From Solirubrobacterales bacterium (GTDB lineage Bacteria; Actinomycetota; Thermoleophilia; Solirubrobacterales; 70-9): DNA of 44,045 nucleotides. Location of the stretch: positions 1 through 44,045 of the forward strand of contig JBOGYZ010000326.1 in assembly GCA_050697015.1 (NCBI GenBank), given 5' to 3'. Below the pieces are notes generated by a model. It was not told where the DNA came from and searched no databases. It was given only the letters and a program-made list of their open reading frames with translations. The first letter of the stretch is position 1. Every line of letters starts with the position of its first letter. Both the position numbers and the translations under genes were made by a program. Below, in pieces: positions 2,033-35,117 of this stretch.

Positions 2033-3032
2033 CTCGGTAGGCGGGGAAGTAGCCGCCGGCGTCGCGGGTGCCGGTGAGCGCCGCGTAGGACTCCGGGTCG
2101 CAGACGACCTCGGAGGTGCGCCACGCGAGCGTGCGGTTGGCGTAGCCGCGCTTGAACTCCTCCAGCGCGTCACCGGGCGTGATCCCGCCGCCGAGGTTCA
2201 GCGGCAGCTCCAGCTCGCTCGCGTGCTCGATCAGCCGGGCGAGAACGTTCTTCATCGGCGAGTCGCCGAGGCGCGAATCGGCGCTGCCGCTGAGGTAGTA
2301 GTGCAGGTAGCCGTCGCTGACGCAGGCGATCGAGGCGGCGGCCGGGGCGCCGTCGGGATCGGTGGCCAGCGCCAGCCAGGTGCGCTCGGCGCCGAAGATC
2401 TCGTCGAAGTAGGCAGCGCCGAAGAAGTAGTGCGACGCGGCGTCGGTCCGGCGCATGGTCTGCTCGTAGAGGTCGAGGAAGGCGGCGCGCTCCTCGGGGC
2501 TCGTCTCCGTCCCCGGGATCAGCTCGACCGCGTATCCCGACTCGAGGTTGCGGCGGACCTGGCGGCGGTCGCTCGGCCGACTCTTCGGCTTCAGTGCCGG
2601 GTCGTGGATCTGGACCACGTTGCGCTCGGTCGGACCCGCGAGCGGCACCAGGTCGAGCCGGTGGCGGATGAAGACCGAGACGAGCCCGGTGCGATGGAAG
2701 TCGATCCCGGTCGGGTCGATCCCCCCCGGTGCGTTCGCACTTTGGTCCGCTATGCGGAAACTTCTGCGAACGCCCTCGTCGGCGTTCACGGTGAAGCCCG
2801 GGTAGCCGTATGGAGACACCGCGTCGAGGTCGGGGCCGCCGTCGATCTCGCGGACGATGAGCGGCGCCAGCAGCTCGGCGTCGGCGAGCTCTATCCGCAG
2901 GGTGTGGGTGGCGCGCTCGGCGGCGAGGAAGTGGGCACCGCGGAAGAACTCGCTCGGGTGGCCGCCGACACCGCCGACGGCCGAGGCGCCGCCGTCCTCG
3001 ATCAGCTGCGCGAAGGGCCTAGAACTACTCAC
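2025..3032 (-). CDS. FemAB/BioF2-like acyltransferase (GNAT-fold) family protein
   Basis: The last ~335 aa of the 422-aa ORF read as real protein (VSPYGYPGF, YLHYYLSGS, GDSPMKNVL, LNLGGG, LEEFKRGYAN). The Arg/Ser/Pro-rich first ~87 aa overlap the upstream GNAT gene and are rejected. Start placed at GTG 3032, which overlaps the GNAT stop by 8 nt; CTG 3005 is an alternative. The 3' end overlaps convergent metF by 8 nt. Confidence 0.6.
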   Translation of the reverse strand: MSSSRPFAQLIEDGGASAVGGVGGHPSEFFRGAHFLAAERATHTLRIELADAELLAPLIVREIDGGPDLDAVSPYGYPGFTVNADEGVRRSFRIADQSANAPGGIDPTGIDFHRTGLVSVFIRHRLDLVPLAGPTERNVVQIHDPALKPKSRPSDRRQVRRNLESGYAVELIPGTETSPEERAAFLDLYEQTMRRTDAASHYFFGAAYFDEIFGAERTWLALATDPDGAPAAASIACVSDGYLHYYLSGSADSRLGDSPMKNVLARLIEHASELELPLNLGGGITPGDALEEFKRGYANRTLAWRTSEVVCDPESYAALTGTRDAGGYFPAYRAS

Positions 3033-3576
3033 CGAACAGGTCGGTGGTGGCGGCCCGGAACTCGTCCGGGAGGACGCCCCAGACCTCGCAGTCGTCGGGC
3101 GGTTCGCCCTCGCGCGCGAGGTGGGCACGCATCGTCCCCTCGTACTTCCAGCCCTGGCTGGCGACGGTCTTCTTCGCGATCTCGTTGCGCGCCGGGATGC
3201 GCCCGTATACCCGGTGGGCGCCGAACTCGTCGAACGCCTTCTTGATCGTCTGGGCCTCGGCGCGCCGCCCCACGCCCTTGCCGCGCACGTCATCTCCGAT
3301 CAATGCGCCCAGCTCCGGCGCGGTCTGGCGGAAGAGCCCGTAGAGGGCGGTGAAGCCGACCGGCTCGTCGTACCCCTCGACCACGATCGCGTACTTGCGG
3401 TCCTCGTCGGAGCCCGCGACCGCCCGCTTCGTCCAGGCTTCGGCTTCCTCCAGCGAGAAGCTCCCCCGCTGCTCCATCAGCGACTTCGTCGCCTCGGGGT
3501 TGTTGAACCAGCGGTGGACGGCGGGCGCATCGCCCTCCTCGAAGGCGCGCAGGCTGACCTCGGGTCGATCGCTCAT
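3025..3576 (-). CDS. GNAT family N-acetyltransferase (RimJ/RimL-like)
   Basis: The translation has the typical layout: LRAFEEGDAPAVHRW.., ..GYDEPVGFTAL.., the acetyl-CoA loop RGKGVGRRA, and ..HRVYGRIPARN... ATG 3576 is preferred over the GTG at 3594, which lies inside the direct repeat. Confidence 0.85.
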   Translation of the reverse strand: MSDRPEVSLRAFEEGDAPAVHRWFNNPEATKSLMEQRGSFSLEEAEAWTKRAVAGSDEDRKYAIVVEGYDEPVGFTALYGLFRQTAPELGALIGDDVRGKGVGRRAEAQTIKKAFDEFGAHRVYGRIPARNEIAKKTVASQGWKYEGTMRAHLAREGEPPDDCEVWGVLPDEFRAATTDLFGE

Positions 3577-3589
3577 CCGCGGAACCCTA

Positions 3590-3630
3590 CCCACGACTCA
3601 CTCGGGGGACACGCCCTCGCCGGTGAGGAC
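3590..3630. repeat. Left copy of a 41-bp direct repeat (orphan duplicate of the sugar-transferase 3' end)
   Basis: Identical to 4870-4910 except C3618 versus T4898. On the minus strand it reads VLTGEGVSPE-stop plus 8 nt but has no gene body upstream. Confidence 0.9.
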
Positions 3631-3653
3631 GGACTCCGTAGCGGGAGACCTCG

Positions 3654-3956
3654 CTAAACGACGACAGGGACCTCTAGGCCGCGGCGGTCAAGCGCTTTCT
3701 GAATGACTCTCTCGACATCCGGCGAAACGCCATGGATAGCGAGCCTGAAATCCAGAATTCCATTCCGCACTTCTTCGGCCAGACATGCGACAAACTCATC
3801 AGCGAATGAATGGCTGGTGGCGATCACCCCGGTGAAATCCAGTACGACCTCACTCTCGTCCTCAGCGGTTCTCGCGAGGTCCTCGCGCATCTGAGTTCCA
3901 AGCGGACGGGTCGCGAGAGTCTTTCCCCGTTCCGCGAGCGCGTAGCTGTACGACAT
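3654..3956 (-). CDS. STAS-like (DUF4325-like) small protein
   Basis: 100 aa, ATG preceded by GAGGAGG. The core ..VVLDFTGVIATSHSFADEFVACL.. matches my memory of the DUF4325/anti-sigma-antagonist-like layout. Sampled lines are lower GC than the flanks. Confidence 0.65.
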   Translation of the reverse strand: MSYSYALAERGKTLATRPLGTQMREDLARTAEDESEVVLDFTGVIATSHSFADEFVACLAEEVRNGILDFRLAIHGVSPDVERVIQKALDRRGLEVPVVV

Positions 3957-4015
3957 TCGCCTCCTCTCTCTCGAACGGTGTCAGGCCTAGTCAGTTTAGA
4001 AAGACGATCGGAAGC

Positions 4016-4861
4016 TCAGACTGACACAAGGTCGTAGGTCATCCAGGTGCCGCGCCGGAATTGCGACGCCGGGAAAGTCTCAATCTTTCGATTTTCCTGA
4101 ACTATCTGGAGACGACAGAAGCCGCTGGCCGAGAGGATGTCCATCTGGGCGCCGTGGAGGGAGCGCGTCAGCGCCGCTTCAAAGGTCGAAGAAAAACCGA
4201 TCCCTCGATGTGGATGCCCGGTACCGGTGATGTGTTCGTCGGTTGCACGCGCGATCGCGTAGCCGTCGTCAGTCCAATCGGGGTAGCGCTGACGTATGTG
4301 CTCCGGGATGCCCATCCCGAGATCCCCGATGGCGATCGAGATCTGCCGGCGAGGGTCGGTGACCCGCCTCACTGCCACGTACGCACCGAGCGGATTTGCC
4401 CCGTGCTCGATTGCATTCCCGCACATCTCCGAGACGGCTTGGAAAGTCGCCTCGCCCAACGCTGAAACATCTGGGAGGTCGTACTCGAGGATCTCCTTCG
4501 TGCGTCTCGCCACCTCCTCGACCTCCAAGAACTCCCGCATCTTCGTTACCGGAAGAACAGCATCGTCTTCTCGGGCCTCTCTCTCGTCCCCGACGTGCAT
4601 CGCATCAAAAAGACGGCGTGCCTCTGGCTCTACTGGTGGAACTACCTCGACAGTCCGCCCTTGCAGCCTGTGCCAGTCCACGAACACCCGCAGCCGCACG
4701 GCGAACATTGGGTGGATCGGCGCCCCGAGCTTTCTGCAGTCAACGACGGCTACTTCAGGCAAGGCATGGCTGAGAGGGAAATCGTCCTTCCAGCCACGGT
4801 CGCCGCTTCGGCTTCCAAGTTCCTTACGCCAATCCATGTAACGGACCCTACGTCTCCACAC
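4016..4861 (-). CDS. GHKL (Bergerat-fold, RsbW/SpoIIAB-like) ATPase/kinase with an extra N-terminal domain
   Basis: N-box SEMCGNAIEHG, G1 box IGDLGMGIP and a G2-like GTGHPHRGIGF are present. About 130 aa of N-terminal extension has no recognised motif. GTG start at 4861; ATG 4837 is an alternative. Confidence 0.7.
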   Translation of the reverse strand: MWRRRVRYMDWRKELGSRSGDRGWKDDFPLSHALPEVAVVDCRKLGAPIHPMFAVRLRVFVDWHRLQGRTVEVVPPVEPEARRLFDAMHVGDEREAREDDAVLPVTKMREFLEVEEVARRTKEILEYDLPDVSALGEATFQAVSEMCGNAIEHGANPLGAYVAVRRVTDPRRQISIAIGDLGMGIPEHIRQRYPDWTDDGYAIARATDEHITGTGHPHRGIGFSSTFEAALTRSLHGAQMDILSASGFCRLQIVQENRKIETFPASQFRRGTWMTYDLVSV

Positions 4862-4869
4862 GGAGGGTC

Positions 4870-4910
4870 CCCACGACTCACTCGGGGGACACGCCCTTGC
4901 CGGTGAGGAC
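4870..4910. repeat. Right copy of the 41-bp direct repeat (true 3' end of the sugar-transferase CDS plus 8 nt)
   Basis: See 3590-3630. It covers the last 10 codons and the stop (4878-4880) of the sugar transferase. Confidence 0.9.
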
Positions 4911-5441
4911 CGGGAGGATCGTCAGGGCGAGGATGCGGAGGTCGAGCCGGGGGGTGCGGTGTTCGACGTACCAGTCGTCGAGCTCGGCCCGTTCGGGCCA
5001 GGTGATGTCCGCGCGGCCCTTCACCTGCGCCCAGCCGGTGATCCCGGGCAAGACGCGGAAGCGGGGGTGGCCGTGGAGGTCGAAGTAGTCGAGGTGGGCG
5101 GGCAGGGCCGGGCGGGGTCCGACGATCGCCATCTCGCCGCGCAGCACGTTGATCAGGTTCGGGATCTCGTCGATCGAGGTGCGACGCATCAGCTCGCCGG
5201 GCTTCGTCACCCGCGGGTCGCCCTGGCCGACCGCCGTCCCGACCCCGACCGGGTCGGAGCCTTCCTTCATCGTCCGCAGCTTCAGCATCTCGAAGACGCG
5301 GCCGTCCTTGCCGACGCGTCGCTGGCGGTAGACGACCGGCCCGCGGCTGTCGAGCTTGATCCAGATCGCCATCGCGAACAGGACCGGGGAGAGGATCAGG
5401 AGCCCGAGGGCGGCCAGGAGGCGGTCGGCGGCGTGGGGCAT
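4878..5441 (-). CDS. Polyprenyl-phosphate sugar-phosphate transferase (bacterial sugar transferase, WbaP/ExoY-type, short form)
   Basis: The last 187 aa of the 429-aa ORF carry a single N-terminal TM, then KLDSRGPVVYRQRRVGKDGRVFEMLKLRTM, DEIPNLINVLRGEMAIVGPRP and GITGWAQV. The upstream Arg/Pro-rich part is rejected. Its ATG shares one base with the GT2 stop (TGATG). Confidence 0.9.
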   Translation of the reverse strand: MPHAADRLLAALGLLILSPVLFAMAIWIKLDSRGPVVYRQRRVGKDGRVFEMLKLRTMKEGSDPVGVGTAVGQGDPRVTKPGELMRRTSIDEIPNLINVLRGEMAIVGPRPALPAHLDYFDLHGHPRFRVLPGITGWAQVKGRADITWPERAELDDWYVEHRTPRLDLRILALTILPVLTGKGVSPE

Positions 5442-6625
5442 CAGCGGGTCCCTGCTGCCTTCTCCCAGCGCCCGCCGGAGCCGTGGCGGAGGCGGTCCCA
5501 GAGGCCGAGGACGATCGAGGCCTGGGTGAGGACGTAGTAGCGGCAGACGCGCACCACGGTGTCGTCGGGAAGGCGGTTGGAAAGCGCCGCGACGGCGAGC
5601 AACGCCAGCTGGACGATCAGGGTCAGGTAGTAGAACCAGCCGGTCCCCAGCAGCACCAGGTTGGCGAGGAGGACGAGGATGTGGAGGAAGGGCGTCGCGT
5701 AGCGGAGCAGCCGGTGGCTGAAGAGCTCGAAGGCGAACAGCGGTGGGTAGCCGCGCGGGACGATCATGCCTTCCCCGACGACGATGTCCCAGAGGCCGAC
5801 CATCATCCGCCGTTTGCGGGCGAACTCGCCCTCGATCGTCGGCACCATCTTCTCCTTGGCGCGCGCCCCCGGTGCATAGAGGGAGCGCAGGCCGCGCTTG
5901 GCGAGCCGGAAGGGGAAGCTGAGGTCGTGGCTGCCGGACGGCGGCAGGTCTTCGTAGGCGCTGCGGCGCACCGCGTAGATCGCGCCGTTGCCGGCGGTGA
6001 TCCCGGCCAGCTCGGACTCCATCGTGCGGATGCCCATCTCGTAGCGCCAGTAGGCGCCCTCGAGGTTGTCGCCCTCGGGGTCGAGGAAGCGGACCTGGCC
6101 GCAGACGTAGCCGACGCGCTCGTCGGCGAACGGGGCGAGCAGCTCCTCCAGCGCGTTCGGCGCCCACTCGCTGTTGGCGTCGGAGAAGGCGAGGATCTCG
6201 CCGACGGCGTCGGAGACCGCTTCGTTCAGGGCGACGACCTTGCCGCCGGGCGGGAGCTCGAGGACGAGGTCGGCGCCGGCGGCGCGCGCCCGCTCGGGCG
6301 TCTCGTCAGTGGAGCCGTCGTCGGCGACGATGATCTGCAGCCGCTCGCGCGGCCAGTCAAGTCGCAGCGCGTTCTCGACTTTCGGCGCGATCACCTCCTC
6401 CTCGTCGTAGGCGGGGATGATCAGGGACACCATCGGCACGTCCTCCGGCGCGCGCCCGGTCGTGCCGGCGGCGAGGCCGGGGGGGCGCGGCGCCCGCGGG
6501 CCGCCCATCGTTTCCCGCCCGCGCCGGGCGGAGACGAGGACCCGGAGCACGAACGGGTAGCCGACCTGGGCGAAGACGATCGCCGGCGCGCAGACCCAGA
6601 AGACGATCGAGGCGAGCGTCGTCAC
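5441..6625 (-). CDS. Membrane-associated family 2 glycosyltransferase
   Basis: 394 aa from GTG 6625, in a GTGA overlap with the GT4 stop. Motifs: SLIIPAYDEE, IIVADDGSTDET, AFSDAN, C-terminal TM segments. Confidence 0.85.
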   Translation of the reverse strand: MTTLASIVFWVCAPAIVFAQVGYPFVLRVLVSARRGRETMGGPRAPRPPGLAAGTTGRAPEDVPMVSLIIPAYDEEEVIAPKVENALRLDWPRERLQIIVADDGSTDETPERARAAGADLVLELPPGGKVVALNEAVSDAVGEILAFSDANSEWAPNALEELLAPFADERVGYVCGQVRFLDPEGDNLEGAYWRYEMGIRTMESELAGITAGNGAIYAVRRSAYEDLPPSGSHDLSFPFRLAKRGLRSLYAPGARAKEKMVPTIEGEFARKRRMMVGLWDIVVGEGMIVPRGYPPLFAFELFSHRLLRYATPFLHILVLLANLVLLGTGWFYYLTLIVQLALLAVAALSNRLPDDTVVRVCRYYVLTQASIVLGLWDRLRHGSGGRWEKAAGTR

Positions 6626-7737
6626 GGGCGCGCCAGCAGCTCCTCGTAGAGCGCCAGGGTGAGGCGGGCGGCCTCGTCCCAGGAGTAGGGCCCGGCGGCG
6701 GCGGCGCGGGCGGCGGCGGCCAGCTCCTCGCGCGCGGCGAGATCGTCGACCAGCTCCCGCAGCACCGCGGCGAGGGCGCCGGTGTCGCCGGGCGCGACGA
6801 GCCGCGCGGCGCCGTGCTCGGCGACCTCCGGGAAGCCGCCGACCGCGCTCACCACCATCGGCTTGCCGAAGGCGAGGCCGGTGTAGAGGACGCCGGAGTG
6901 CTCGGCGTCCAGATAGGGCAAGGCGATGATGTCGGCGCGGCGGAAGATCGCCGGGATCTCGGCGTCCTCGACGAAGCGGGTGACGAAGCGGACCTTGGCG
7001 CCGGTCAACGCGGCGGCCTCGTGCAGCGGCTCGACCGACATCCGCGGGTTGCCGACGATCCACAGCTCGGCGCCCTCGACCTCGGTGAACGCCTCGAGCA
7101 GGTTCTCCAGCCCCTTATAGGGGCGCAGCAAGCCGAAGGAGAGGACCACCGGCCCCTCCGCCCCCTGCAGCTCCTCCGGCAGCGGCTTCTCCTCCGGCAG
7201 CCGGGTCAGATAGTCGAAGGCGCCGTGGGGGATCACCCGCACGCGATCAGCCGGCAGCCCGACTTCGTCGCGCAGCCGGCGGGCGCCGTGCTCGGAGTGG
7301 GCGACGACCGCGTCCATCGCGCCGAACACCTTGTGGGCGCCACGGGCGGCGCGACGGCTTGCGTTCGGAGGCAGGATGTAGTGAGCGGTCATCACCCGGG
7401 GGCGGGTCGACGGCAACAGGCGCCGGTCGATCCCTGGCAGGGTCAGCCACTGGTAATGGACGAGGTCGGCATCCGTGGGCGCGCGTTTGAACGCCCGCAT
7501 GTCCCGCAGGTGCTCGGCGGCCTTGAACGGCAGCCGCGCCGAGGAGGAGAGCCCGCGCGAGGCGGTGCGCTTATAGAAGCGCTCATCGACCTCGTAGCCC
7601 TCCGCCTCGGGGACCGGCCCGTAGAGGAACTTCGTCGTGACCAGCTCCACCTCCGCCCCCCCACGCGCGAGCGCCGCGGCAAGCGCGCGGTCATAGGGCG
7701 GCGTGAAGGCGGATGGATCGACGAGTTGGACTTTCAT
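6622..7737 (-). CDS. Family 4 (GT-B, GT1-type) glycosyltransferase
   Basis: 371 aa. The C-terminal half has the EHSGVLYTGLAFGKPMVVSAVGGFPE retaining-GT signature (E-x7-E region). Confidence 0.9.
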   Translation of the reverse strand: MKVQLVDPSAFTPPYDRALAAALARGGAEVELVTTKFLYGPVPEAEGYEVDERFYKRTASRGLSSSARLPFKAAEHLRDMRAFKRAPTDADLVHYQWLTLPGIDRRLLPSTRPRVMTAHYILPPNASRRAARGAHKVFGAMDAVVAHSEHGARRLRDEVGLPADRVRVIPHGAFDYLTRLPEEKPLPEELQGAEGPVVLSFGLLRPYKGLENLLEAFTEVEGAELWIVGNPRMSVEPLHEAAALTGAKVRFVTRFVEDAEIPAIFRRADIIALPYLDAEHSGVLYTGLAFGKPMVVSAVGGFPEVAEHGAARLVAPGDTGALAAVLRELVDDLAAREELAAAARAAAAGPYSWDEAARLTLALYEELLARP

Positions 7738-7991
7738 GATGGTGAGAGGTGTTGTCTGTAGGCGCTTTGTCTGCGCGGAAGTATCAAGCGTGCCGGTACC
7801 AAGTTCTTTAGGTACGGCCTTGAGCGGTGTGGAGAAATTGGATGGTTCGATAGCTCTCTACTGGTTGAACGCTACTTTGACCGTTCAGCGAGCGCTCAGC
7901 GCAACGACATAGGGCGGGAGCGTCCGCGCTCCGCTGTTCGAAATGCGCCGCATAGGCGGATAAGGAACGCCGGAGGGAGAGCACGGCCAGG

Positions 7992-8936
7992 GTGATCGCC
8001 CAAGGCGAACTATCGTGGCCGGTTGTGGAGCTTTCTTACTGCGTGGTGAACACGAACGGGCGGGATTTCCTGCTTTCCTGCCTAGCCGCGATCGAGGCGA
8101 CGCATCCGGTCGGGGTCGAGCGGGAGGTGCTGGTGCTCGACAACGCCTCGACCGATGGGTCGGCTAAGGCAGTGCGGGCTCTTGGCGGCGACATCGAGCT
8201 GATCGAGCAGGCGCGGCCGACGGGGAAGGCTGCCAACGACTCGCTTCTCATGGAACGGGCGAAGGGGCGCTATTGCCTGCTCCTCAACGAGGACTCGGAG
8301 CTGAAACCGGGAGCCGCGTCGGTCCTCATGGCCGCGCTCGATGACGACCCGCGGGCCGCTGCGGCGACCCCGCAGCTGCTCGACTCGAACGGCGCCCCCT
8401 ACCCCTGCGCGTGGCGCTTCCCCGGCGTCGGCACGGCGCTCGCCGGTGCGCTCTTCCTGCACCGGTGGCTCACCGTGCAGAGCACCGGGAAGGTGACGCG
8501 CCGGGTCGACTGGGCGCAGTCGAGCGCGTTGATGGTCCGCCGCGAGGCGGCTGCGGAGGTCGGCTTCATGGATCCCGACTTCTTCGTCTACTACGACGAG
8601 TGCGACTTCGCCAAGCGGCTCGCGGAGGCGGGTTGGCACGAGCTCTTCGTCCCCGGCGCCGCCGCCGTCCACCGTGACCAGCTCTCGAGCGACCTCGCCG
8701 CCGGCCTGCCGCGGATCGTCGAATTCCACCGCAACCGCGACCTCTACATGCGCAAACACCATGGGCGGATCGCGGCGCTCGCGGTCCGCGCGCTCACCGC
8801 CTGGTCCTACGCCGTGCGCGCGCTCGTGGCGACCGTCATCCCCGGCCGGCCGGCCGAGGTGTACCGCGCCCACGCACTGCAGGCGCTGTTCCCGGCGCGC
8901 GGCGCCGGGATACGTGACCGCGCGGAGGCGGGCTAG
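7992..8936 (+). CDS. Family 2 glycosyltransferase (rhamnosyltransferase-like)
   Basis: Motifs: SYCVVNTNGRDFL, VLVLDNASTDGS, LLNEDSEL, FFVYYDECDF. The start is uncertain (GTG 7992 or GTG 8025). Confidence 0.8.
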   Translation: MIAQGELSWPVVELSYCVVNTNGRDFLLSCLAAIEATHPVGVEREVLVLDNASTDGSAKAVRALGGDIELIEQARPTGKAANDSLLMERAKGRYCLLLNEDSELKPGAASVLMAALDDDPRAAAATPQLLDSNGAPYPCAWRFPGVGTALAGALFLHRWLTVQSTGKVTRRVDWAQSSALMVRREAAAEVGFMDPDFFVYYDECDFAKRLAEAGWHELFVPGAAAVHRDQLSSDLAAGLPRIVEFHRNRDLYMRKHHGRIAALAVRALTAWSYAVRALVATVIPGRPAEVYRAHALQALFPARGAGIRDRAEAG

Positions 8937-18476: not shown

Positions 18477-20024
18477 ATGCCTGACCGCCCCACCAGCTCG
18501 AAGATGATCGGCACCGTGCTCTCGGGCCGCTACCGGCTGGAGGCCAAACTCGGCTCGGGCGGCATGTCGACGGTCTACCTCGCCCGCGACACCACCCTCG
18601 ACCGCCCGGTCGCGGTGAAGGTCATGCACCGGGAGATGTCCGAGCAGGCCGACCAGCTCGAGCGCTTCCGCCAGGAGGCGCGCGCGGTCGCGAAGATCTC
18701 CCACCCCAATGTCGTCGCCGTGATCGACGCGGGCGAGGACGGCGGCTACCCCTACATCGTCTTCGAATACGTCGAAGGGGAGACGCTGAAGGCGCGGATC
18801 AACCGGGTGGGCGCGCTCGACGTGCAGGAATCGCTCGCCTACGCGATCGAGATCGCCCGCGGCCTCACCGTCGCCCACGCGCGCAAGATGGTCCACCGGG
18901 ACATCAAGCCGCAGAACGTCCTGATCGACGCCGAGGGGCGCGCCAAGCTCACCGACTTCGGCATCTCCCGCCAGCTGGAAAAGGACGGGCTGACGGCGAC
19001 CGGTCGCGTGCTCGGCACCACCGACTACGTCGCCCCCGAGCAGGCGATGGGACACGGTGCCGACCAGCGCTCCGACCTCTATTCGCTCGGCGTCGTCCTC
19101 TTCGAGATGCTCACCGGCCACGTCCCCTTCTCGGCCGACAGCCAGGTCGGCGTGGCGATGAAACACGTCAACGAGGAGCTGCCCGACGTGCAGGCCGACC
19201 GCCCGGAACTGTCGGCGGCGACGGCGCTGGTGGTCGAGCGGGCGACGGCCAAGGATCCGACCAAGCGCTACGCCGACGTCGGCGAGATGATCGACGACCT
19301 CTCCACCGCGCTCGAGGTCGAGGCGGCGCGCGCGGGGTCCACCACGGGCGAGGCGACCAGCGTGCTGGACGCGCTGCCGCCGGCCCAGCGCAAACTGTCC
19401 CGCCGAGCGACCTGGTCCTGGGTGGCGATCCTGGCGGCCATCATGATCGCCGCTGCGGTCCTCCTGGCGACCCAGTTGATCGGCAACGGCAACGTAGGGA
19501 ACGGCGGCAACCCTGGGAACGGCGGCAACGGCGGAGGCGGCGGGAAGACCGCCGAACACCAGGTCGCGATCGAAGAAGCGACCGACTACGACCCCGAGGG
19601 CGACGGCGAAGAGGATCCGGAAACCGTCGGGCTGGCGGTCGACGGCAACCCGACCGGAACCGCCTGGTCGAGCGAGCACTACGACACCGACACCTTCGCG
19701 GGGACCAAGGAAGGCCCGAACCCCGGCGTCGGCCTCTACGTCACCACCCAGGCGGCGGTGACGCCGAACACGATGAAGATCATCACCCCGACGCCGGGCT
19801 GGGACGCCCAGATCTACGCCGCCGCCTCCGGCCCGCCCGAAGAAATCGAAGAATGGGGCGAAGCGATCGGCGAGGTGACGAACGCCTCAAAGGAAGAAGA
19901 AGTCCAGCTCCACCTCGGCCAGGCCGCCAAATACTTCCTGATCTGGTTCACCAAAGCCTCACCCGCGAGCGATCAGGAAGGCCGCTTCCAGGTCGAAATC
20001 TCCGACGTGAAGCTGTTCGAATAG
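18477..20024 (+). CDS. Hanks-type Ser/Thr protein kinase with TM segment and extracellular C-terminal domain
   Basis: Motifs: GSGGMSTVY, VAVKV, VHRDIKPQNVLI, LTDFGISR, GTTDYVAPEQ. A TM segment (WSWVAILAAIMIAAAVLLA) is followed by an N/G-rich linker and a ~150-aa ectodomain. Confidence 0.9.
   Translation: MPDRPTSSKMIGTVLSGRYRLEAKLGSGGMSTVYLARDTTLDRPVAVKVMHREMSEQADQLERFRQEARAVAKISHPNVVAVIDAGEDGGYPYIVFEYVEGETLKARINRVGALDVQESLAYAIEIARGLTVAHARKMVHRDIKPQNVLIDAEGRAKLTDFGISRQLEKDGLTATGRVLGTTDYVAPEQAMGHGADQRSDLYSLGVVLFEMLTGHVPFSADSQVGVAMKHVNEELPDVQADRPELSAATALVVERATAKDPTKRYADVGEMIDDLSTALEVEAARAGSTTGEATSVLDALPPAQRKLSRRATWSWVAILAAIMIAAAVLLATQLIGNGNVGNGGNPGNGGNGGGGGKTAEHQVAIEEATDYDPEGDGEEDPETVGLAVDGNPTGTAWSSEHYDTDTFAGTKEGPNPGVGLYVTTQAAVTPNTMKIITPTPGWDAQIYAAASGPPEEIEEWGEAIGEVTNASKEEEVQLHLGQAAKYFLIWFTKASPASDQEGRFQVEISDVKLFE
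19494..19529 (+). repeat. 18-bp tandem duplication inside the kinase linker (VGNGGN/PGNGGN)
   Basis: gtagggaacggcggcaac / cctgggaacggcggcaac, 15 of 18 positions identical and directly adjacent. Confidence 0.85.
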
Positions 20025-20123
20025 CCCCTAGTCACTCACCGAAAGACCCCGCTTGGGTCGCCGACGATACGTCGGCCGCCAGAGAAGATCGCCGGGCCCC
20101 CGCAGATTCAGGATGCCCGATGG

Positions 20124-20471
20124 CTAAGCCGCTGCCATCTCGCCAGTCGGCGAGTCGGACACATCTTCGCGAGACTCGACACTGCTGCGAACCATTTCGA
20201 GATCGGTCTCCCGCTCGATGATGGCGATCACTTCAGCAATGCGCTGGTGAATCTCGGCATCGGTGGTTCCCATGACGTTAAACCGCAGCTTGATCGAGCA
20301 CGTCGCCATGTTCAGCGCGACGACCGGACCGAGTGCCAGGTCGGAAGCGTGATCCTCGAGGGCATCGATGACATCGTCGGAGTTTGCGTCCAAGACCTCC
20401 TCCGACATCGGGTCGGCCATGTGCATCTCCAAGAGAACGTGGGCCTCGCGGTCCCGCTTGCTGCTCGCCAT
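20124..20471 (-). CDS. Small acidic hypothetical protein
   Basis: 115 aa, D/E-rich. The ATG is preceded by AAGGAG, which lies right after the stop of the upstream small gene (13-nt gap). Lower GC than the flanks. Confidence 0.55.
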   Translation of the reverse strand: MASSKRDREAHVLLEMHMADPMSEEVLDANSDDVIDALEDHASDLALGPVVALNMATCSIKLRFNVMGTTDAEIHQRIAEVIAIIERETDLEMVRSSVESREDVSDSPTGEMAAA

Positions 20472-20484
20472 CAGCTCCTTGACT

Positions 20485-20826
20485 TTACACGTCGAGCCCT
20501 GCGGCTCGCAGGGCAGCTTTGGTGTTTTCCAACGTCCGGCTACTACTGGGCGTCATTGGGATCTTGACCCTATCGCTGTCGGGATCGGGTGGGGAGACAT
20601 AGATGTACTTGCGACGCTTCTCACATTTCCAGCCAGCGGCCCACGCTGCCTTGACAAGGAGCCGGTAGTCCTTCTTCGGGTGATTTGGACAGTTTGCATC
20701 GGGGTTTTCGACCCGCCACGGGTGGGGTTCAGGAGGTTTTTTGACCTTCGATTTGGGCTTGGACATCAGGGGCTTCGATCCTTCCGTCCGGATGCCCTGC
20801 AAATCTGTTGCGAGAGAGAGCGACAT
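20485..20826 (-). CDS. Small basic protein with a HicA-like (YcfA/dsRBD-like) C-terminal layout
   Basis: 113 aa; the alternative start MSKPKSK at 20766 gives 93 aa. The N-terminus is Lys-rich. The C-terminal KDYRLLVKAAWAAGWKCEKRRKYIYVSPP..RVKIPMTP..TLENTKAALRAAGL mirrors the helix-strand-strand-helix order of HicA toxins but lacks the catalytic His. Confidence 0.45.
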   Translation of the reverse strand: MSLSLATDLQGIRTEGSKPLMSKPKSKVKKPPEPHPWRVENPDANCPNHPKKDYRLLVKAAWAAGWKCEKRRKYIYVSPPDPDSDRVKIPMTPSSSRTLENTKAALRAAGLDV

Positions 20827-20854
20827 CGACGGACTTCTTCATTATTCGATTTAC

Positions 20855-20882
20855 GAAAACCCGCCCGGCCAGGCGGGTTTTC
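20855..20882. terminator. Bidirectional intrinsic-terminator-like hairpin
   Basis: gaaaacccgcc-cggcca-ggcgggttttc: perfect 11-bp stem, 6-nt loop, with an A-tract before and a T-tract after on both strands. Confidence 0.6.
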
Positions 20883-21026
20883 TTGCTGTCGGGAAGCTAT
20901 TGGGCGAGGCGGACGGCTTTCGAGTAATGAATCGACCGAGTACTCGACAGAGATGTCGCTAAACCGAACGCGGAACCCGACCGCTGCCATGCGGCGCAAA
21001 TCCACTTCGCGCTCTCGGTCCTTTCC

Positions 21027-21050
21027 AAAAAAGCCGGTAGACGTACCGAC
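21027..21050 (-). terminator. Intrinsic terminator of ddl
   Basis: The minus-strand RNA GUCGGUA-CGUC-UACCGGC forms a 7-bp stem with one G-U pair, followed by UUUUUU. It starts 10 nt after the ddl stop. Confidence 0.7.
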
Positions 21051-21059
21051 CCGAGAGGC

Positions 21060-22025
21060 TCAGAACTCGTAGGAGCGGGCGCGCTGGTGGCGCTCGATCG
21101 CGAGGGTGACGAGGCGGTCGCAGAGGTCCGGGTAGGAGAGGCCGTCGGCCTCGAGGAGCTTCGCGTAGACGCTCGTCTCGGTGAAGCCGGGCATCGTGTT
21201 GATCTCGTTGACGAGCACCGTGCCGTCGGGCTCGACGAAGAAGTCGCAGCGGGCGAGGCCGGAGCAGCCGGCCAGGCGGAAGACCTCGGCGGCGAGCTCG
21301 CGCACGCGGGTCGTCTCGATCTCCGAGATCGGCGCCGGGACCGCCAGGTCCATGCCGCCCTCCGCGTACTTCGCCTCGTAGTCGTACCACTGGGCGTGGG
21401 CGAGGATCTCCCCTGGCATCGACGTCCGCGGGTCCTCGTTGCCGAGCACCGAGCACTCGATCTCGCGGCCATGGGCGGAGGCCTCGACGATCACCCGCGG
21501 GTCGTGCCGCAGTGCCGTCTCGATCGCCGCGTCGAGCGCGGTGAGATCCTCGATCCGGGTGATGCCGACGCTCGAGCCCATCCGCGAGGGCTTCACCCAG
21601 AGCGGCGTGTCAAGCTCGGCGCAGCGCTCCCGCCAGCCCTCCTCGCCGACCTCGACGAAGTCCACCTGTGGGATCCCCTGCCCCGCCAGGATCCGCTTCA
21701 GCGTGAGCTTGTCCAGGCAGGTCGCCGAGGCCAGCACGTCGGAGCCGACGTAGGGCAGGTCGAGCATCTCCAGCAGGCCCTGCATGCTGCCGTCCTCGCC
21801 GAAGGGGCCGTGGAGGACGGGGAAGACGACGTCGGCGCCGAGCAAGCCGCCACCGGGGACCAGCTCCACCGCCGCGCCCGCGGCGCTCCAGCGCCCGTCA
21901 CGGCCGATCCGCACCTCGACCACCTCATGCCCGCCTTCCTCCAGGCCTTTCATCACCGACGCGCCGGAGTTGAGCGAGACCTCGTGCTCGGAGGAGCGGC
22001 CGCCGCTCAGCACCGCCACCCTCAC
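21060..22025 (-). CDS. ddl: D-alanine--D-alanine ligase
   Basis: 321 aa from GTG 22025, in a GTGA overlap with the pknB stop. Motifs: VAVLSGGRSSEHEVSL, FPVLHGPFGEDGSMQGLLE, LWVKPSRMGSSVG, EINTMPGFT. The upstream 327 aa of the ORF are rejected. Confidence 0.95.
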   Translation of the reverse strand: MRVAVLSGGRSSEHEVSLNSGASVMKGLEEGGHEVVEVRIGRDGRWSAAGAAVELVPGGGLLGADVVFPVLHGPFGEDGSMQGLLEMLDLPYVGSDVLASATCLDKLTLKRILAGQGIPQVDFVEVGEEGWRERCAELDTPLWVKPSRMGSSVGITRIEDLTALDAAIETALRHDPRVIVEASAHGREIECSVLGNEDPRTSMPGEILAHAQWYDYEAKYAEGGMDLAVPAPISEIETTRVRELAAEVFRLAGCSGLARCDFFVEPDGTVLVNEINTMPGFTETSVYAKLLEADGLSYPDLCDRLVTLAIERHQRARSYEF

Positions 22026-25444: not shown

Positions 25445-26784
25445 GACAGCGCCCCCAGCGGTTCAGAGCGTTCGTTGTTCGTCGCGCCCTCTTCGGCTTC
25501 GCGCCTGGCGCGGTCGGAGACCAGCAGCAGCAGCGCCAGGAGGACGAAGTTGGCGACGATCGAGCTGCCGCCGTAGGAGACGAAGGGCAGGGTGACGCCG
25601 GTCAGCGGGATCACCCGGGTGACGCCGCCGATGATCACGAAGGCCTGGATCGCGAAGACCGCCGTAAGGCCGGTCGCCAGCAGCTTCGAGAACCCATCGT
25701 TGGCCAGCAGCGCGACCTTGAACCCGCGGGCGGTGATCAGCAAATAGGTGGCGATCAGGCCGCAGGCGCCGAAGAGGCCGAGCTCGTTGACGATCAGCGA
25801 GTAGATCGTGTCGGTCTGCGCCGCAGGCAGCAGCGTCGCCTTGGTGCCTGGAATCGTGATCAGCCCCTGGCCGAAGCCTTTCCCGAAGAGCCCGCCGTCG
25901 GCCTGGGCGAAGATCGACTGCAGGATCTGGTAGCCAGTGCCCTGCGGGTCGCTGTAGGGATGGAGCCAGATCTCGACCCGGTCGTGGACGTGCGGGACGG
26001 TGGTGACGATGAACCAGGCACCGACCAGGAAGAGCAGCGACCCGATCACGACGAAGCTGAAGCGGCCGGTCGCCACGTAGAGCAGGGCGAGGAAGGCGGC
26101 GAAGAACATCAGCGAGCTGCCGAGGTCTCGGATGAAGACGAGCAACAGCATCGTCGCGCCCCAGACCACCAGCATCGGCCCGAAGTGTTTGATCGGCGGC
26201 AGGGTCACGCCGAGCACCCGCCGCGCGCCGACGATCAGCACCTCGCGGTTCTCCCGCAGGTAGGAGGCGAGGAAGACGACGATCGCGAGCTTCGCGAACT
26301 CGGCCGGCTGGAAGGAGATCGGGCCCACCTTCACCCCGAGATAAGCCCCGTTGACCTGTTCCCCGATCCCCGGCAGGCGCGGCGCCAGCAAGAGCAGGAT
26401 GCCGACCGTGGCGATGATGTAGCGGTAGCGCTCCAGCACCTCGTAATCGCGCAGGAACTGGATCGTCAGGGCGAAGAGGACGAGGCCGAAGACGAACCAG
26501 TTGGCCTGGTTCCGGGCCAGGCTTTCGTCGATCCGGTAGATCATCACCAGCCCGAACGCGGTCAGCACCGCCATCAGCGGGAAGAGGTACGGGTCGGCGT
26601 GCGGCAGGCGGATCCGCAGGTAGATGTGGGTCGCCAGGCAGAGGGCGAAGAAATAGGCGCCGTAGGTGAGGCTGAGGTTGCCGAGCTTCGAGTTCTCCTG
26701 GGCGAAGACCGCGGCGAATCCGGCCGTCAGCAGGAGCGCCACGGGGATGAGGGCGAGCATCTCGCGGTTGCGGGCGCGGGTCAT
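25441..26784 (-). CDS. rodA: SEDS family peptidoglycan glycosyltransferase (FtsW/RodA)
   Basis: 447 aa, polytopic. Motifs: FQPAEFAKLAIV, SDPQGTGYQILQS, PAAQTDTIYS, PFVSYGGSS. It has 4-nt overlaps with both pstP and pbpA. Confidence 0.95.
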   Translation of the reverse strand: MTRARNREMLALIPVALLLTAGFAAVFAQENSKLGNLSLTYGAYFFALCLATHIYLRIRLPHADPYLFPLMAVLTAFGLVMIYRIDESLARNQANWFVFGLVLFALTIQFLRDYEVLERYRYIIATVGILLLLAPRLPGIGEQVNGAYLGVKVGPISFQPAEFAKLAIVVFLASYLRENREVLIVGARRVLGVTLPPIKHFGPMLVVWGATMLLLVFIRDLGSSLMFFAAFLALLYVATGRFSFVVIGSLLFLVGAWFIVTTVPHVHDRVEIWLHPYSDPQGTGYQILQSIFAQADGGLFGKGFGQGLITIPGTKATLLPAAQTDTIYSLIVNELGLFGACGLIATYLLITARGFKVALLANDGFSKLLATGLTAVFAIQAFVIIGGVTRVIPLTGVTLPFVSYGGSSIVANFVLLALLLLVSDRARREAEEGATNNERSEPLGALS

Positions 26785-28037
26785 CCGCCGGCCTTTTCTT
26801 CAATCCCGGTCGCCGGTTCCGAGGTCGTCGTCGCTTCCGTGACCCCCTGGCCGCGTTCGATTTCTTCCAGCAGCTTCACCGCGTCATCGCGCGAGCGCAC
26901 GCTCTGGCCGGTCACCGCGTCCTTGCGTTTTTCGGGCAGCGATTCGGTCTGGACCGGGGACGAATGCTCCTCCGTGTAGAGCTTGACGCCGAAGGGGAGC
27001 TCGTAGGGGACGCCGCGGTAGAGGGTGACGCGACCGGCTTCGTCGGTGCCGAGGAACCAAGTGTGGTGGAGGCCGTAGGTGGCGCCGAAGACGATCGCCC
27101 CGATCACGACCAGCAGGGCGAGGACCCCGGCGACTCGTTTCATGATCTTCCGCCGCCGGCCCGGGCGACGGGACGCGTCGGCTGCCTCGCGTCGTTGCCG
27201 CGAGGCGTCGGCGGCGGCGCGGCGGCGCACCTCGGTCGCGGTCAGCCCCGCGTCGGTGGCGCTCGAGCCGATCAGCGTCGCGCCCTCCGCCGTCCCCGCG
27301 TCGAGGCCCGGTTCGGCCGCGTCGACGACCTTGAAGGCGATCACGCTGATGTTGTCGCGGCCGCCCGCCCGGTTGGCTTCGTCGACCAGGGCGCGGACCG
27401 CGTTCGGCATCGAGGTGGCGCGGGTGAGCAGGCGCTCGACATGCTCGTCGTCGAGCATCGTGGTCAGCCCGTCGGAGCAGAGCAGGAAGATGTCCCCCGC
27501 CTGCGCCGGCACCGTCTGCAGGTCGACCTCAACCTCCGGTTCGGGCCCGACCGAGCGGGTGATGATCGAGCGCTGCGGGTGGTCCTCGGCCTGCGCCTCG
27601 GTCAGCTGCCCTTTGCGCCGCATCTCCTCGACCAGCGAGTGATCGCGGGTGAGCCGTTCCAGCTTGCCCCGCCGGAGGCGATAGGCGCGGCTGTCGCCGA
27701 CGTGGCCGATCGCCACCTCGTCGGAGCTCTCGTCGAGGATCGCCGCGGTGGTCGTCGTCCCCATCCCGGACAGGTTCGGGTCTTTGTTGGCGAGCGAGTA
27801 GACGGTGCGGTTGGCGCCTTCGATCGTCTCCTTCAGAACCCGCTCCGGCGGCGCCTCGGGGAGCGGGCGGTCGAAGGCGTCGACGACGGTCTTCGAGGCG
27901 ACCTCGCCGGCGCGCGCCCCGCCCATCCCGTCGGCGATGACGAAGAGCGGCGCGCGGACGAAGACCGAGTCCTCGTTGGCGCTGCGCTGGCGCCCGGTGT
28001 CAGTGGCGTAGGCCTGATCGGTGATCCGCAGCGTCAT
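26781..28037 (-). CDS. pstP: PP2C-family Ser/Thr phosphatase with TM segment and ectodomain
   Basis: 418 aa. Motifs: TDTGRQRSANEDS, ADGMGGARAGEVAS, LLCSDGL, GGRDNISV. A TM segment (VAGVLALLVVIGAIVFG) follows. Confidence 0.95.
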   Translation of the reverse strand: MTLRITDQAYATDTGRQRSANEDSVFVRAPLFVIADGMGGARAGEVASKTVVDAFDRPLPEAPPERVLKETIEGANRTVYSLANKDPNLSGMGTTTTAAILDESSDEVAIGHVGDSRAYRLRRGKLERLTRDHSLVEEMRRKGQLTEAQAEDHPQRSIITRSVGPEPEVEVDLQTVPAQAGDIFLLCSDGLTTMLDDEHVERLLTRATSMPNAVRALVDEANRAGGRDNISVIAFKVVDAAEPGLDAGTAEGATLIGSSATDAGLTATEVRRRAAADASRQRREAADASRRPGRRRKIMKRVAGVLALLVVIGAIVFGATYGLHHTWFLGTDEAGRVTLYRGVPYELPFGVKLYTEEHSSPVQTESLPEKRKDAVTGQSVRSRDDAVKLLEEIERGQGVTEATTTSEPATGIEEKAGG

Positions 28038-32944: not shown

Positions 32945-33081
32945 CGGCGGACCTCTCGGGGGTTGCCGGGGAAGGGGTTCTGACGCCGCCCTGCCGACCG
33001 AGACTCTTCGGATGGACCAAACAGCGTGATCCTTTAAGCACACCTAGGTCGTTCCGAATAGAGCTATGCTGCATCGCCGAG

Positions 33082-33930
33082 TTGGCCAGAACACTGAGAG
33101 CAGGGACAATCGACCAACAAGAGCTTCAAGAGGCGCTGCCGCCCAACGTTGCGCTCGGGTCAAAGATTCACGACGGCGGTCAGCGCAAGGTCTACCGCGC
33201 AAAACGCGAGGGGGTGGATGTAGTCCTCAAGGTGATGCCGATCGATGCCGTGGAGCGGGCAGAACGCGAGGTTTCGATCGGCTGCACCTTCGATCATCCA
33301 AACCTGGCCCGAATCCTGGATGACGAGCTCAGCCAGCTCACCGTTGGTGAGGATGATTTCGTTTGGTTTTGCGAGGAATACATAGACGGAGAGGTCTTGG
33401 CCAGCAGAGTAGGTGTCTACGAGCCTTGCGAGGCTCTCGATCTTGCCTCTGACCTGATCGAGGCCGTTGCCTATTTATGGGAGCGGCATGATGTGGTCCA
33501 CCGGGACATCAAGCCTCTCAACATCATCCGGCGATCTTCAGGGGGCTATGTGCTCATCGATGTCGGTATTGGTCGGCACCAGGGCGATCCCTCGATCACT
33601 TCTGGCGCCCTAGGCCCCGGGACCATCGGCTATCTGGCTGCTGAGCAATACATACCGAACAAAGGTCGGATGCTCGACTCACGCACTGATCTGTTCCTAA
33701 TCGGGATAGTCGTCTTTCAGGTGCTGACTGATGTTCTTCCATTTCGCCCAAACGACCCCGACTATTACGCCAAGCTGTTAAGCGGGGATTGGCCTCGGCC
33801 CCAAGGTCTGCCGGCGCCCATATCCGAGCTCTTGGAGAGGTTTCTTGGAAGGAATCCACATCAGCGTCCGCCGATAGCGCAAGCGGCAGGAATGATCCTA
33901 GGAGCAAAGGAGGAACTTGGATGCTCTTAG
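33082..33930 (+). CDS. Stand-alone Hanks-type protein kinase domain protein (atypical)
   Basis: 282 aa with a TTG start. Motifs: VVLKV (Lys), ERAEREV (Glu), VVHRDIKPLNII, DVG in place of DFG, GTIGYLAAEQ, HQRP. The Gly-rich loop is degenerate (GSKIHDGGQRKVY). There is no TM or sensor domain. Sampled GC is ~50-65%. Confidence 0.75.
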   Translation: MARTLRAGTIDQQELQEALPPNVALGSKIHDGGQRKVYRAKREGVDVVLKVMPIDAVERAEREVSIGCTFDHPNLARILDDELSQLTVGEDDFVWFCEEYIDGEVLASRVGVYEPCEALDLASDLIEAVAYLWERHDVVHRDIKPLNIIRRSSGGYVLIDVGIGRHQGDPSITSGALGPGTIGYLAAEQYIPNKGRMLDSRTDLFLIGIVVFQVLTDVLPFRPNDPDYYAKLLSGDWPRPQGLPAPISELLERFLGRNPHQRPPIAQAAGMILGAKEELGCS

Positions 33931-35108
33931 TTCAGGACGGCCACCATGCTTCCGGGCACATATCCGAGGCGTTAACGGACGGCTACGCAGATGGAGCGAT
34001 CTGGAGTCCGGCTGACGAGACGCCCGACCTCCTTCGCGAGAGGGTGGGCAACGCTGCAGCCGGTGGCGTCACTCAAGCGATCGATCCGCAGCTGTATATG
34101 GCTCTGCTCGAAGACGCCAATCCAAAGAAGCATTTAAGCCATGGCCTTTTCGACATTCCTCTCCGGCAGTTCGGGTCGAAACGACTCGCGGCCATGGTCG
34201 AGCGGGTGATCGAATTTCAAGCGGCCCTACCGGTCACCCATCTACTGTCTCCCACCGTCGCAGTTTCGGCTGTGAATCATCGCTCGGCACAGATCGCCGT
34301 GAACCTTGCGGAGACCTCGCTCGAAGTCGCTGCTGACCTAGCAGACGGCAGACCACTGTTGGTGAGCGCTGCACTGGATCGGGACATTCTGGCCGACTCC
34401 GAAGCGGTGAATGCGATGCTCGACGAGCTAACTAGCTACCGCGCGGACGGCTTCTACCTCCTATTTGAGATCGACCCCGGTATGGACGGCGTGCGGCAAG
34501 CTGCGCTCCTCGGGGAAGCCCTGTATGTGGTTCACATACTTTCGTCTGTGCAGGGTCTTCCTGTGTGGGTTGGTTACGCCGGGGTCCAAGGGTACTTACA
34601 CCGCGCCGTCGGAGCGGAAGCCTTTGGCGCCGGTTGGTTCCAGAAGCAGCAGTGGTGGAGCACGTCGCACTGGAGCGGTTCTAAAGGAGGGGGCGGCAGA
34701 CCGCCGAGAAATCGCCTCTACCTTGACACTCTTCTTGGAAGCCTCCTGATCGAGCCAGAGTTCGCGAGTATCTACTCGCAGAGACGGGATGTGAGCTTGG
34801 CTTCCGACCTCTTGACGGGAGCCGGTGTCCTAGCTGCGAGCTTCCGCTCTTCGGCTCCAGCGGATCCAGGGCGTAGCCCATGCGCCGCACAACTCCTGCA
34901 AATTTGCCGAGACCTCGACCGACGTATCACGGGAGACCTACGCGCCGACTTGGATCGGATTGATGCTGACCTTGCGGGAGCTGAGCAGTTATACCGACGA
35001 ATAGAGGACGTAGGAGTACAACTCCACGGACGAAGCTCCGCCGCACAACTCAGCGTATGGCGGGCCGCAGTTGATGCCTTTTGCATACGAGCTGGCGTGA
35101 ACCGCTAG
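33921..35108 (+). CDS. Hypothetical 395-aa protein, predicted alternating beta/alpha (barrel-like) fold plus helical C-terminus
   Basis: The ATG is preceded by AAGGAGG and overlaps the kinase stop by 10 nt. I recognise no family motif. Eight short hydrophobic strands alternate with amphipathic helices (see findings). Confidence 0.7.
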   Translation: MLLVQDGHHASGHISEALTDGYADGAIWSPADETPDLLRERVGNAAAGGVTQAIDPQLYMALLEDANPKKHLSHGLFDIPLRQFGSKRLAAMVERVIEFQAALPVTHLLSPTVAVSAVNHRSAQIAVNLAETSLEVAADLADGRPLLVSAALDRDILADSEAVNAMLDELTSYRADGFYLLFEIDPGMDGVRQAALLGEALYVVHILSSVQGLPVWVGYAGVQGYLHRAVGAEAFGAGWFQKQQWWSTSHWSGSKGGGGRPPRNRLYLDTLLGSLLIEPEFASIYSQRRDVSLASDLLTGAGVLAASFRSSAPADPGRSPCAAQLLQICRDLDRRITGDLRADLDRIDADLAGAEQLYRRIEDVGVQLHGRSSAAQLSVWRAAVDAFCIRAGVNR

Positions 35109-35117
35109 CCACCAGAA

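Follow-up and report, generated by a model that had tools for sequence, protein, structure and literature searches.

A putative kinase–STAS gene pair in a glycan cluster of Solirubrobacterales: an accessory module at a recombination hot spot, flanked by a probable recombination scar

CapK and CapS consist of a DNA-damage-activated kinase and its substrate, a STAS–winged helix-turn-helix (wHTH) repressor, and are encoded upstream of immune operons (Chambers et al., EMBO J 2026, PMC13373217). CapK has the architecture helix-turn-helix (HTH)–STAS–GHKL and CapS carries a C-terminal wHTH; single-stranded DNA activates the kinase, and phosphorylation releases the partner (PMC13373217). In the VapK/VapS/VapC system, the STAS-only protein is an antitoxin that is released by phosphorylation (PMC13373217). 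The subject of this paper is a gene pair that resembles these systems, found in contig JBOGYZ010000326.1 (assembly GCA_050697015.1) of a Solirubrobacterales bacterium. The whole stretch of 44,045 nucleotides that was analysed is called the window (WIN in comparisons of loci), and coordinates refer to it unless another locus is named. The pair lies between the gene of a Bac_transf phosphoglycosyl (sugar) transferase (BT) and that of a GNAT acetyltransferase, and is flanked by a 41-nt direct repeat. The reading that we favour, with some reserve, is that it is an accessory kinase–STAS module, not mobile by itself, which occupies a recombination hot spot at the BT–GNAT gap, and that the repeat is a recombination scar.

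Both genes of the pair read, like all genes of this region, on the minus strand. The first (4016..4837) encodes a GHKL/HATPase_c protein of 273 amino acids; its open reading frame was listed from a GTG at 4861, and the homologues begin at the ATG at 4837. HATPase_c matches 20 of 20 aligned homologues, and the N, G1 and G2 boxes read E..NAIEH, DLGMG and GTGHPHRGIG. In the AlphaFold model (pLDDT 81.5), for which Foldseek retrieves Bergerat-fold ATP-binding domains, residues 1–100 form a beta-beta-alpha-beta-alpha-beta domain that precedes the GHKL domain; no HTH was detected in this N-terminus. The second gene (3654..3956) follows a conserved spacer of 59 nt (3957..4015), with GGAGG 5 nt before its ATG, and encodes a STAS-like protein of 100 amino acids from the DUF4325 family (PF14213, E 8e-7). 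Its model (pLDDT 92) best matches SpoIIAA bound to SpoIIAB (1TID_B, TM score 0.65, probability 1.0), and also RsbV (6M36). S48 and S50 are invariant among the homologues, in a motif (TSHSFADEF) that is itself invariant from S48 onwards, and the protein is single-domain in all 84 homologues found. For the two proteins together, PADLOC returns only a sub-threshold DrmA match and NCBIfam only a weak SpoIIAB match, while sequence and profile searches of the PDB gave marginal results.

The likeness to CapK and CapS lies first in the layout: the genes are adjacent, the kinase comes first and the STAS gene second, the GHKL protein resembles anti-sigma-factor kinases, and helix 2 of the STAS partner begins with a serine that is absolutely conserved. 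Other genes follow directly downstream of the pair, and in other genomes the region contains defence cargo. A plasmid of Janibacter melonis (L178, NZ_CP046475.1, 37231-45785) has homologues of both proteins, encoded in the same order, with identities of 29% (E 2e-15) and 33% (E 2e-10). The Janibacter STAS protein has a MarR-type wHTH and matches PDB 9z71-9z73 (wHTH regulators of 184-185 amino acids, deposited next to VapS, 9z7o), so that this pair, judged by its domains, has the CapK/CapS architecture; it adjoins a ThiF/BilD-like E1 and an AAA ATPase. In the plasmid annotation, its GHKL gene is a "hypothetical protein" and the partner only a "DUF4325 domain-containing protein". Unlike CapS, the STAS protein of the window has no wHTH in its 100 residues and therefore cannot be a DNA-binding repressor. 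The neighbours also differ from those of CapK/CapS, since they are genes of glycan synthesis that are present with or without the pair, and not an immune operon.

VapK and VapS are similar in other respects: the kinase is of about 280 amino acids, with an extra N-terminal domain before GHKL, the STAS partner is essentially single-domain, and the STAS protein of the window gives a weak direct match to PDB 9z7o (E 0.11). The differences are that this protein lacks the C-terminal inhibitory helix of VapS and that the pair is followed, instead of by a PIN/VapC gene, by the conserved GNAT gene, which occurs without the pair in 64 species. The pair further recalls SpoIIAB–SpoIIAA and RsbW–RsbV, in which a GHKL serine kinase with N, G1 and G2 boxes acts on a single-domain STAS antagonist that has a phosphorylatable serine at the start of helix 2; the boxes and the fold are also seen here (the best structural matches are 1TID and 6M36), with S48 and S50 as the invariant serines. 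It differs from them by the reversed gene order, kinase first, by the 100-residue N-terminal domain of the kinase, and by belonging to DUF4325 rather than to a canonical STAS family (STAS_2 is below threshold). Neither the cassette nor its immediate neighbours encode a sigma factor or a PP2C phosphatase, unlike the SpoIIAB–SpoIIAA system; the PP2C gene of the window (26781-28037) is part of a conserved FHA–PP2C–RodA–PBP–PknB cluster. The GHKL protein is predicted to be a serine kinase of the CapK/VapK type, and the STAS protein its phospho-acceptor.

The initial annotation of this DNA had described the pair as a cassette, mobile or inserted site-specifically, which duplicated 41 bp of its target, and the architecture that it reported holds. 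The copies of the repeat (3590-3630 and 4870-4910) are identical at 40 of 41 positions, the sole mismatch being C3618/T4898; such a repeat never arose in 100 dinucleotide-preserving shuffles, and a search that allowed three mismatches found no third copy. The right (proximal) copy, 4870..4910 on the minus strand, is the genuine end of BT (4878..5441, minus strand), a small phosphoglycosyl transferase of 187 amino acids (PF02397, E 4.5e-57): it comprises the last 33 nt of the coding sequence (...VLTGKGVSPE-TGA), with the TGA stop at 4878-4880, and the 8 nt GTCGTGGG at 4870-4877. The left (distal) copy, 3590..3630 on the same strand, is an orphan, made of 33 nt of a BT 3' end (...VLTGEGVSPE-TGA, with the TGA at 3598-3600) and of GTCGTGGG at 3590-3597; it ends 13 nt upstream of the ATG (3576) of the GNAT gene (3025..3576, minus strand), which codes for 183 amino acids and is assigned to Acetyltransf_3 by Pfam. 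The two same-strand genes lie in the 1,239 nt that separate the copies. As had also been stated, the cassette encodes no integrase or transposase; neither these nor any other recombinase were found among the open reading frames of the whole 44-kb window, in which no tRNA gene was found either. The orphan followed by the GNAT leader reproduces, within the window, the junction of an empty site.

Such empty sites do exist in relatives, as the initial annotation had anticipated. A scan with the GNAT protein, with one genome per species, gave 80 orthologous loci, of which 79 are informative, L116 having no upstream sequence, and the nearest relatives are all metagenome-assembled genomes of Solirubrobacterales. 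The site is empty in 64 of the 79, the BT stop leading straight to the GNAT start. The GHKL–STAS pair is present at exactly the position of the window in eight loci, two (L104 and L117) hold internally deleted remnants of it, and five have other cargo in the gap. A metagenome scan with the sugar transferase, whose other matches were mostly distant paralogues, added one more empty site, L004. In its minimal form, the empty site reads GAG TAG GGTTCCNNN ATG/GTG: the TAG stop of BT overlaps a TAGGGT box that lies 6–7 nt before the GNAT start. The GNAT protein itself is 80–96% identical in all relatives, with or without the cassette. The idea of an insertion relative to empty sites therefore stands, while that of a mobile element with a 41-bp target duplication is not supported.

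The cassette homologues with protein identities of 59–93% whose context was read (L001-3, L087, L093, L098, L099, L105, L137, L164-177 and L180), as well as the pair of L160 (52%), all lie between BT and GNAT, so that copies at other loci, as a mobile cassette would have, were not seen at or above 59% identity. The sole pair found elsewhere, L179 (160-2013), is distant (55% identity) and lies in a low-GC stretch in the order PemK toxin gene, GHKL, DUF4325 and then tRNA-Ser on the opposite strand. No homologue was found in the phage collection that was searched. The family is of moderate size, with 196 cluster representatives at E <= 1e-10, a good number of which measure about 280-290 amino acids. 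Signs of decay are seen in several loci: deletions of ~0.7-0.8 kb in L104:4539-5000 and L117:4559-5000 fuse the N-terminus of GHKL to the C-terminus of STAS, the STAS gene is truncated in L099:4671-4913, the GHKL frame is apparently interrupted in L137:3787-3951, and L146 is also listed as decaying.

The history of the cassette and that of its flanks are not the same. In a tree of the upstream flank (the 3' part of the GT2 gene plus BT), filled loci do not group together but are interspersed with empty ones, with L087 as sister to L089 and L137 as sister to L158, and the cassette tree is discordant with this flank tree. L093 and L002 have flanks that are 97–100% identical over several kb and cassettes that are only 61–79% identical, or about 70% in round terms; the low-identity stretch runs from the BT 3' end up to the final ~60 nt of STAS, with its breakpoints at the 3' ends of these two genes. 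Likewise, WIN and L003 have flanks at about 92% and cassettes at about 66%. Because of this discordance, the alignments indicate that homologous recombination in the conserved flanks exchanges cassette alleles.

A different history would be that the cassette is ancestral to this clade and vertically inherited, that it was lost repeatedly where the site is now empty, for instance when the flanking repeats recombined with each other, and that the repeat is maintained by intragenomic gene conversion. The comparison of WIN with L087 fits this scenario, since cassette and flanks have diverged alike there, at about 90% identity throughout, and in general cassette identity broadly follows BT identity; the remnants in L104 and L117 show that loss occurs, and a deletion between the 41-mers would restore the empty site exactly. 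It is nevertheless unlikely: besides the strong discordance of flanks and cassettes just described, a separate loss would be needed in each of the 64 empty species out of 79, the minimal empty site, in which the TAG stop overlaps TAGGGT, is found with both groups of BT alleles and does not readily follow from a deletion, and the composition of the cassette, considered below, has not ameliorated at third codon positions in any allele.

The repeat is not a constant companion of the cassette. Orphans are confined to one lineage of the cassette tree, and most filled loci have none (L002, L003, L093, L105, L098, L137, L160, L164, L167 and L169 among others); the repeat is absent from at least 12. 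In the orphan-free loci, the STAS stop is followed by about 25–40 nt with another TANNNT box, often TAAGCT. In the window, a cassette tail of 23 nt (CGAGGTCTCCCGCTACGGAGTCC, 3631..3653, minus strand), homologous to those of L170 and L176, joins the STAS stop to the orphan, which consists of 33 nt of BT 3' end plus the 8-nt spacer. L170-175 have the same junction and a homologous tail of 23-25 nt; their orphan matches the BT end of the same genome at 26 of 33 positions and is followed by an empty site of the TAG-overlap type. The orphan of L176 is degraded, and that of L087 shortened to about 28 nt; both loci share junction and tail with the window and L170-175, so that the orphan lengths from one common junction are about 28, 33 and 41 nt. 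The orphan of L001, on the other hand, is frame-broken, measures 75 nt, derives from another BT allele and has its junction elsewhere. L177 has no orphan; in this locus an extra reverse GNAT gene is followed by about 170 nt of a donor BT 3' end, which lie upstream of the cassette. The scars thus vary in length, side and allele, and therefore point to illegitimate joins, not to a transposase or a site-specific recombinase. An assembly artefact, i.e. a mis-join at a short repeat, which had been named as a possible refutation, is hardly credible, since more than 25 independent assemblies have the same gene order and the orphan-at-junction architecture recurs in six independent samples (the independent assemblies L170–L175 have it), and in a diverged form in L176 and L087.

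Integrative elements and cis-mobilisable elements (CIMEs) would likewise show direct repeats that copy a target gene's 3' end, relatives with an empty site and, in the case of CIMEs, no recombinase of their own. The pair could accordingly be a non-autonomous site-specific element, a CIME or mobilisable islet, whose 41-bp repeats would be attL and attR and which a tyrosine or serine recombinase encoded elsewhere would target to the BT 3' end in trans. The foreign composition, the identical orphan junction of the window and L170, and the location of the distant pair L179, whose low-GC island has tRNA-Ser and a PemK toxin gene next to the pair, all agree with this. We give it little credence, considering that neither a recombinase nor a partner integrase was found in the 44 kb, that the putative core repeats exist only in the window (40/41), L170-175 (26/33) and, degraded, L176 and L087, most filled loci being repeat-free, that the scars of L001 and L177 differ in length, allele and side, that the allele-swap breakpoints lie in coding sequence, as homologous recombination predicts, and that the checked homologues with at least 59% identity are found at one locus only.

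Two other kinds of element were considered and rejected. A transposon, insertion sequence or MITE (miniature inverted-repeat transposable element) should have terminal inverted repeats, and the motif of ~20 nt in inverted orientation that had been tentatively aligned at both ends proves to be at chance level: the best local alignment score, 13, is equalled in 14% of shuffles and in 33% of random genomic 40-mer pairs (P = 0.14 and 0.33). There is also no target-site duplication of fixed length, and the checked homologues with at least 59% identity are found at one locus. As for an integron gene cassette, an attC site, which is an imperfect palindrome of 57-141 nt, is not found at the 3' end of the cassette: the segment from the STAS stop to the GNAT start does not fold better than shuffles (z = 0.28), and Rfam gives no match.

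How the module may have come to carry the repeat can be pictured as follows. Homology-facilitated illegitimate recombination combines one homologous anchor with one illegitimate join and occurs in transformable bacteria. In the simplest history, a donor fragment "BT 3' end – GHKL – STAS" would have entered an empty site by a left crossover that was homologous, within BT, and a right join that was illegitimate, 33 nt before the stop of the recipient's BT. Because this join falls before the recipient's own BT end, the recipient's "BT end – GTCGTGGG – TAGGGT – GNAT" junction would survive and be left behind as the orphan; selection would tolerate the join, since an intact BT end comes with the donor DNA and nothing changes in the promoter region of the GNAT gene. 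It may be that the orphan is retained since it preserves the upstream half of the GNAT promoter. The 40/41 identity of the copies would result from later refreshment, whether through gene conversion or because the block "orphan–promoter–GNAT" recombined with alleles of empty sites. An anchor in BT combined with an illegitimate join accounts for the distal orphans of the window and L001 as well as for the donor fragment of L177; unlike what recurrent events of this type would give, the window and L170 share one junction, which implies the inheritance of a single event. More generally, the module would be spread, replaced and lost by recombination between related genomes.

Several observations weigh against this reading of the module and its scar. 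At three variable synonymous sites, the orphans of the window, L087 and L170 have the sequence of their own genome's BT end; this match needs concerted evolution or recurrent events, and a single old scar is not sufficient to explain it. A site-specific process would also yield the exactly identical junction of the window and L170. Neither donor, nor recipient, nor intermediate has been observed, and homology-facilitated illegitimate recombination is a presumed mechanism here. The low GC content at third codon positions (GC3), which persists in all cassette alleles, is left unexplained. Regarding the proteins, the HATPase_c score of the GHKL protein is 24 bits, below the Pfam gathering threshold of 26.4, the Foldseek results for its model do not separate kinases from ATPases of the GyrB/Hsp90 type, and its N-terminal domain has no Pfam or profile–profile similarity to STAS; kinase activity, phosphorylation site and partner are all predictions.

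The composition of the cassette is foreign-looking, and the GC dip that the initial annotation had noted from sampled lines is borne out by computed values: GC is 0.57-0.63 in the cassette and about 0.70 outside, and GC3 is 0.64-0.70 in the cassette, compared to 0.93-0.97 outside it. This holds for all cassette alleles, down to about 52% identity, whose GC3 is about 0.53-0.77 in comparison with 0.90-0.99 in their flanks; about 30% of their third positions are A or T, in contrast to 4-8% in the neighbouring genes. Control by TTA codons (bldA-type) is not the cause of the low GC3, since there are 0-1 TTA per gene.

Quite apart from the cassette, the gap between BT and GNAT is itself a hot spot, for this one site holds different, compositionally atypical cargo in related genomes. 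L133:3115-4957 and L108:2646-4369 have a low-GC (0.55-0.58) insert of 2 kb there, with two genes of defence type, one for an FRG protein (PADLOC PDC-S15, E 4e-52), the other for a protein like GmrSD_N/NsnA (E 5e-28). Other cargo consists of small genes without known function in L094, L106 and L159 and of an extra GNAT gene in L108 and L177. Two families of palindromes of about 60 nt were also noticed. The first (TGTTGATGGGCCGAAAAC…GTTTTCGGCCCATCAACA) stands right after the BT stop in many empty sites and related loci (L085:4261-4356, L086, L088-L091, L095, L103, L106 and L177:2090-2150) and occurs elsewhere in L090:765-807, L095:2022-2064 and L101:2013-2055; going by this distribution, it looks like a dispersed repeat of the REP (repetitive extragenic palindrome) or MITE type, and it is absent from the window. 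The second (GAACTGCATCAAATTCT…AGAATTTGATGCAGTTC) is found in the BT–GNAT spacer of L127, L131, L136, L140 and L153, with variants in L121 and L128.

Regarding expression, the TANNNT motif (mostly TAGGGT) is found 6-8 nt before the GHKL and GNAT starts in nearly all related loci. Leaderless genes of actinobacteria typically have a TANNNT box 6-8 nt ahead of the start codon, as learned from mycobacterial promoters. The position of these boxes suggests that the GHKL and GNAT transcripts may be leaderless. In the window, the promoter-like GNAT leader (3577..3589, minus strand) has its –10 box, TAGGGT, at 3584-3589, followed by the 7 nt TCCGCGG and the ATG, and the layout is the same in empty sites. 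The cassette leader (4838..4869, minus strand) comprises a small hairpin region of 19 nt (4851-4869), a –10-like TAGGGT (4845-4850) and 7 nt to the ATG of the GHKL gene; the hairpin is doubtful, its conserved stem being of only 4 bp and its folding z-score –1.8. It had been supposed that the cassette exploits read-through transcription of the operon; with its own TAGGGT-N7-ATG, like the GNAT gene, it has no need to depend on it.

As to function, the GHKL kinase would phosphorylate S48 or S50 of the single-domain STAS protein. Because the latter has no DNA-binding or toxin-binding extension, its output would most likely be a phosphorylation-controlled binding to another protein, and because the pair has a constant position next to BT and acetyltransferases, a glycan enzyme is the first candidate for its target; we consider that the wiring of the module to a glycan enzyme has a low probability. 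A more elaborate scheme, drawn by analogy, is that the pair is a stress- or phage-sensing switch on surface-glycan synthesis: a signal such as single-stranded DNA would lead to phosphorylation of the STAS protein, the acetyltransferase or the phosphoglycosyl transferase would then be bound or released, and the glycan, as a phage receptor, would be altered. The pair would in that case be an old polymorphism at a defence hot spot, with presence, absence and multiple alleles, and with a codon composition of its own. This scheme is speculative and, in our estimate, rather improbable.

The window covers an origin-proximal part of the chromosome, with dnaN, recF, gyrB, gyrA and the FHA–PP2C–RodA–PBP–PknB cluster, next to which lies a glycan cluster of the Wzx/Wzy type. 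This includes genes for a PglF-like dehydratase, Wzy, Wzx and three glycosyltransferases, then BT, the cassette, the GNAT gene and an Acetyltransf_6 gene; the GT2 gene upstream of BT ends in a stop codon that overlaps the BT start (TGATG). We also note further low-GC regions in the window. One, at 33000-35400 (0.57-0.60), has an open reading frame of 282 amino acids with a Pkinase domain (33082-33930) and two without Pfam match (33789-35108 on the plus strand and 35118-36044 on the minus strand). Another, at 19800-21000 (0.58-0.61), has an open reading frame of 234 amino acids without Pfam match (20368-21072) between two Ser/Thr kinase genes. A dip at 7650-8100 (0.59-0.61) corresponds to the divergent intergenic region between a GT4 gene (6622-7737, minus strand) and a GT2 gene (7992-8936, plus strand).

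For the scanning of genomes, this locus calls for caution: when a low-GC insert is bounded by a short direct repeat, the repeat can mimic the footprint of a transposon or of an att site and yet be a recombination scar. The compositional anomaly that all alleles have retained has to be accounted for, for instance by selection, by silencing or by a flux that continues. The locus also documents a hot spot of defence type inside a polysaccharide operon. Last, the predicted pair would extend the CapK/CapS–VapK/VapS kinase–STAS family to a stripped-down form, without DNA-binding or toxin output, which keeps to a single position within a glycan cluster of the under-studied soil order Solirubrobacterales.

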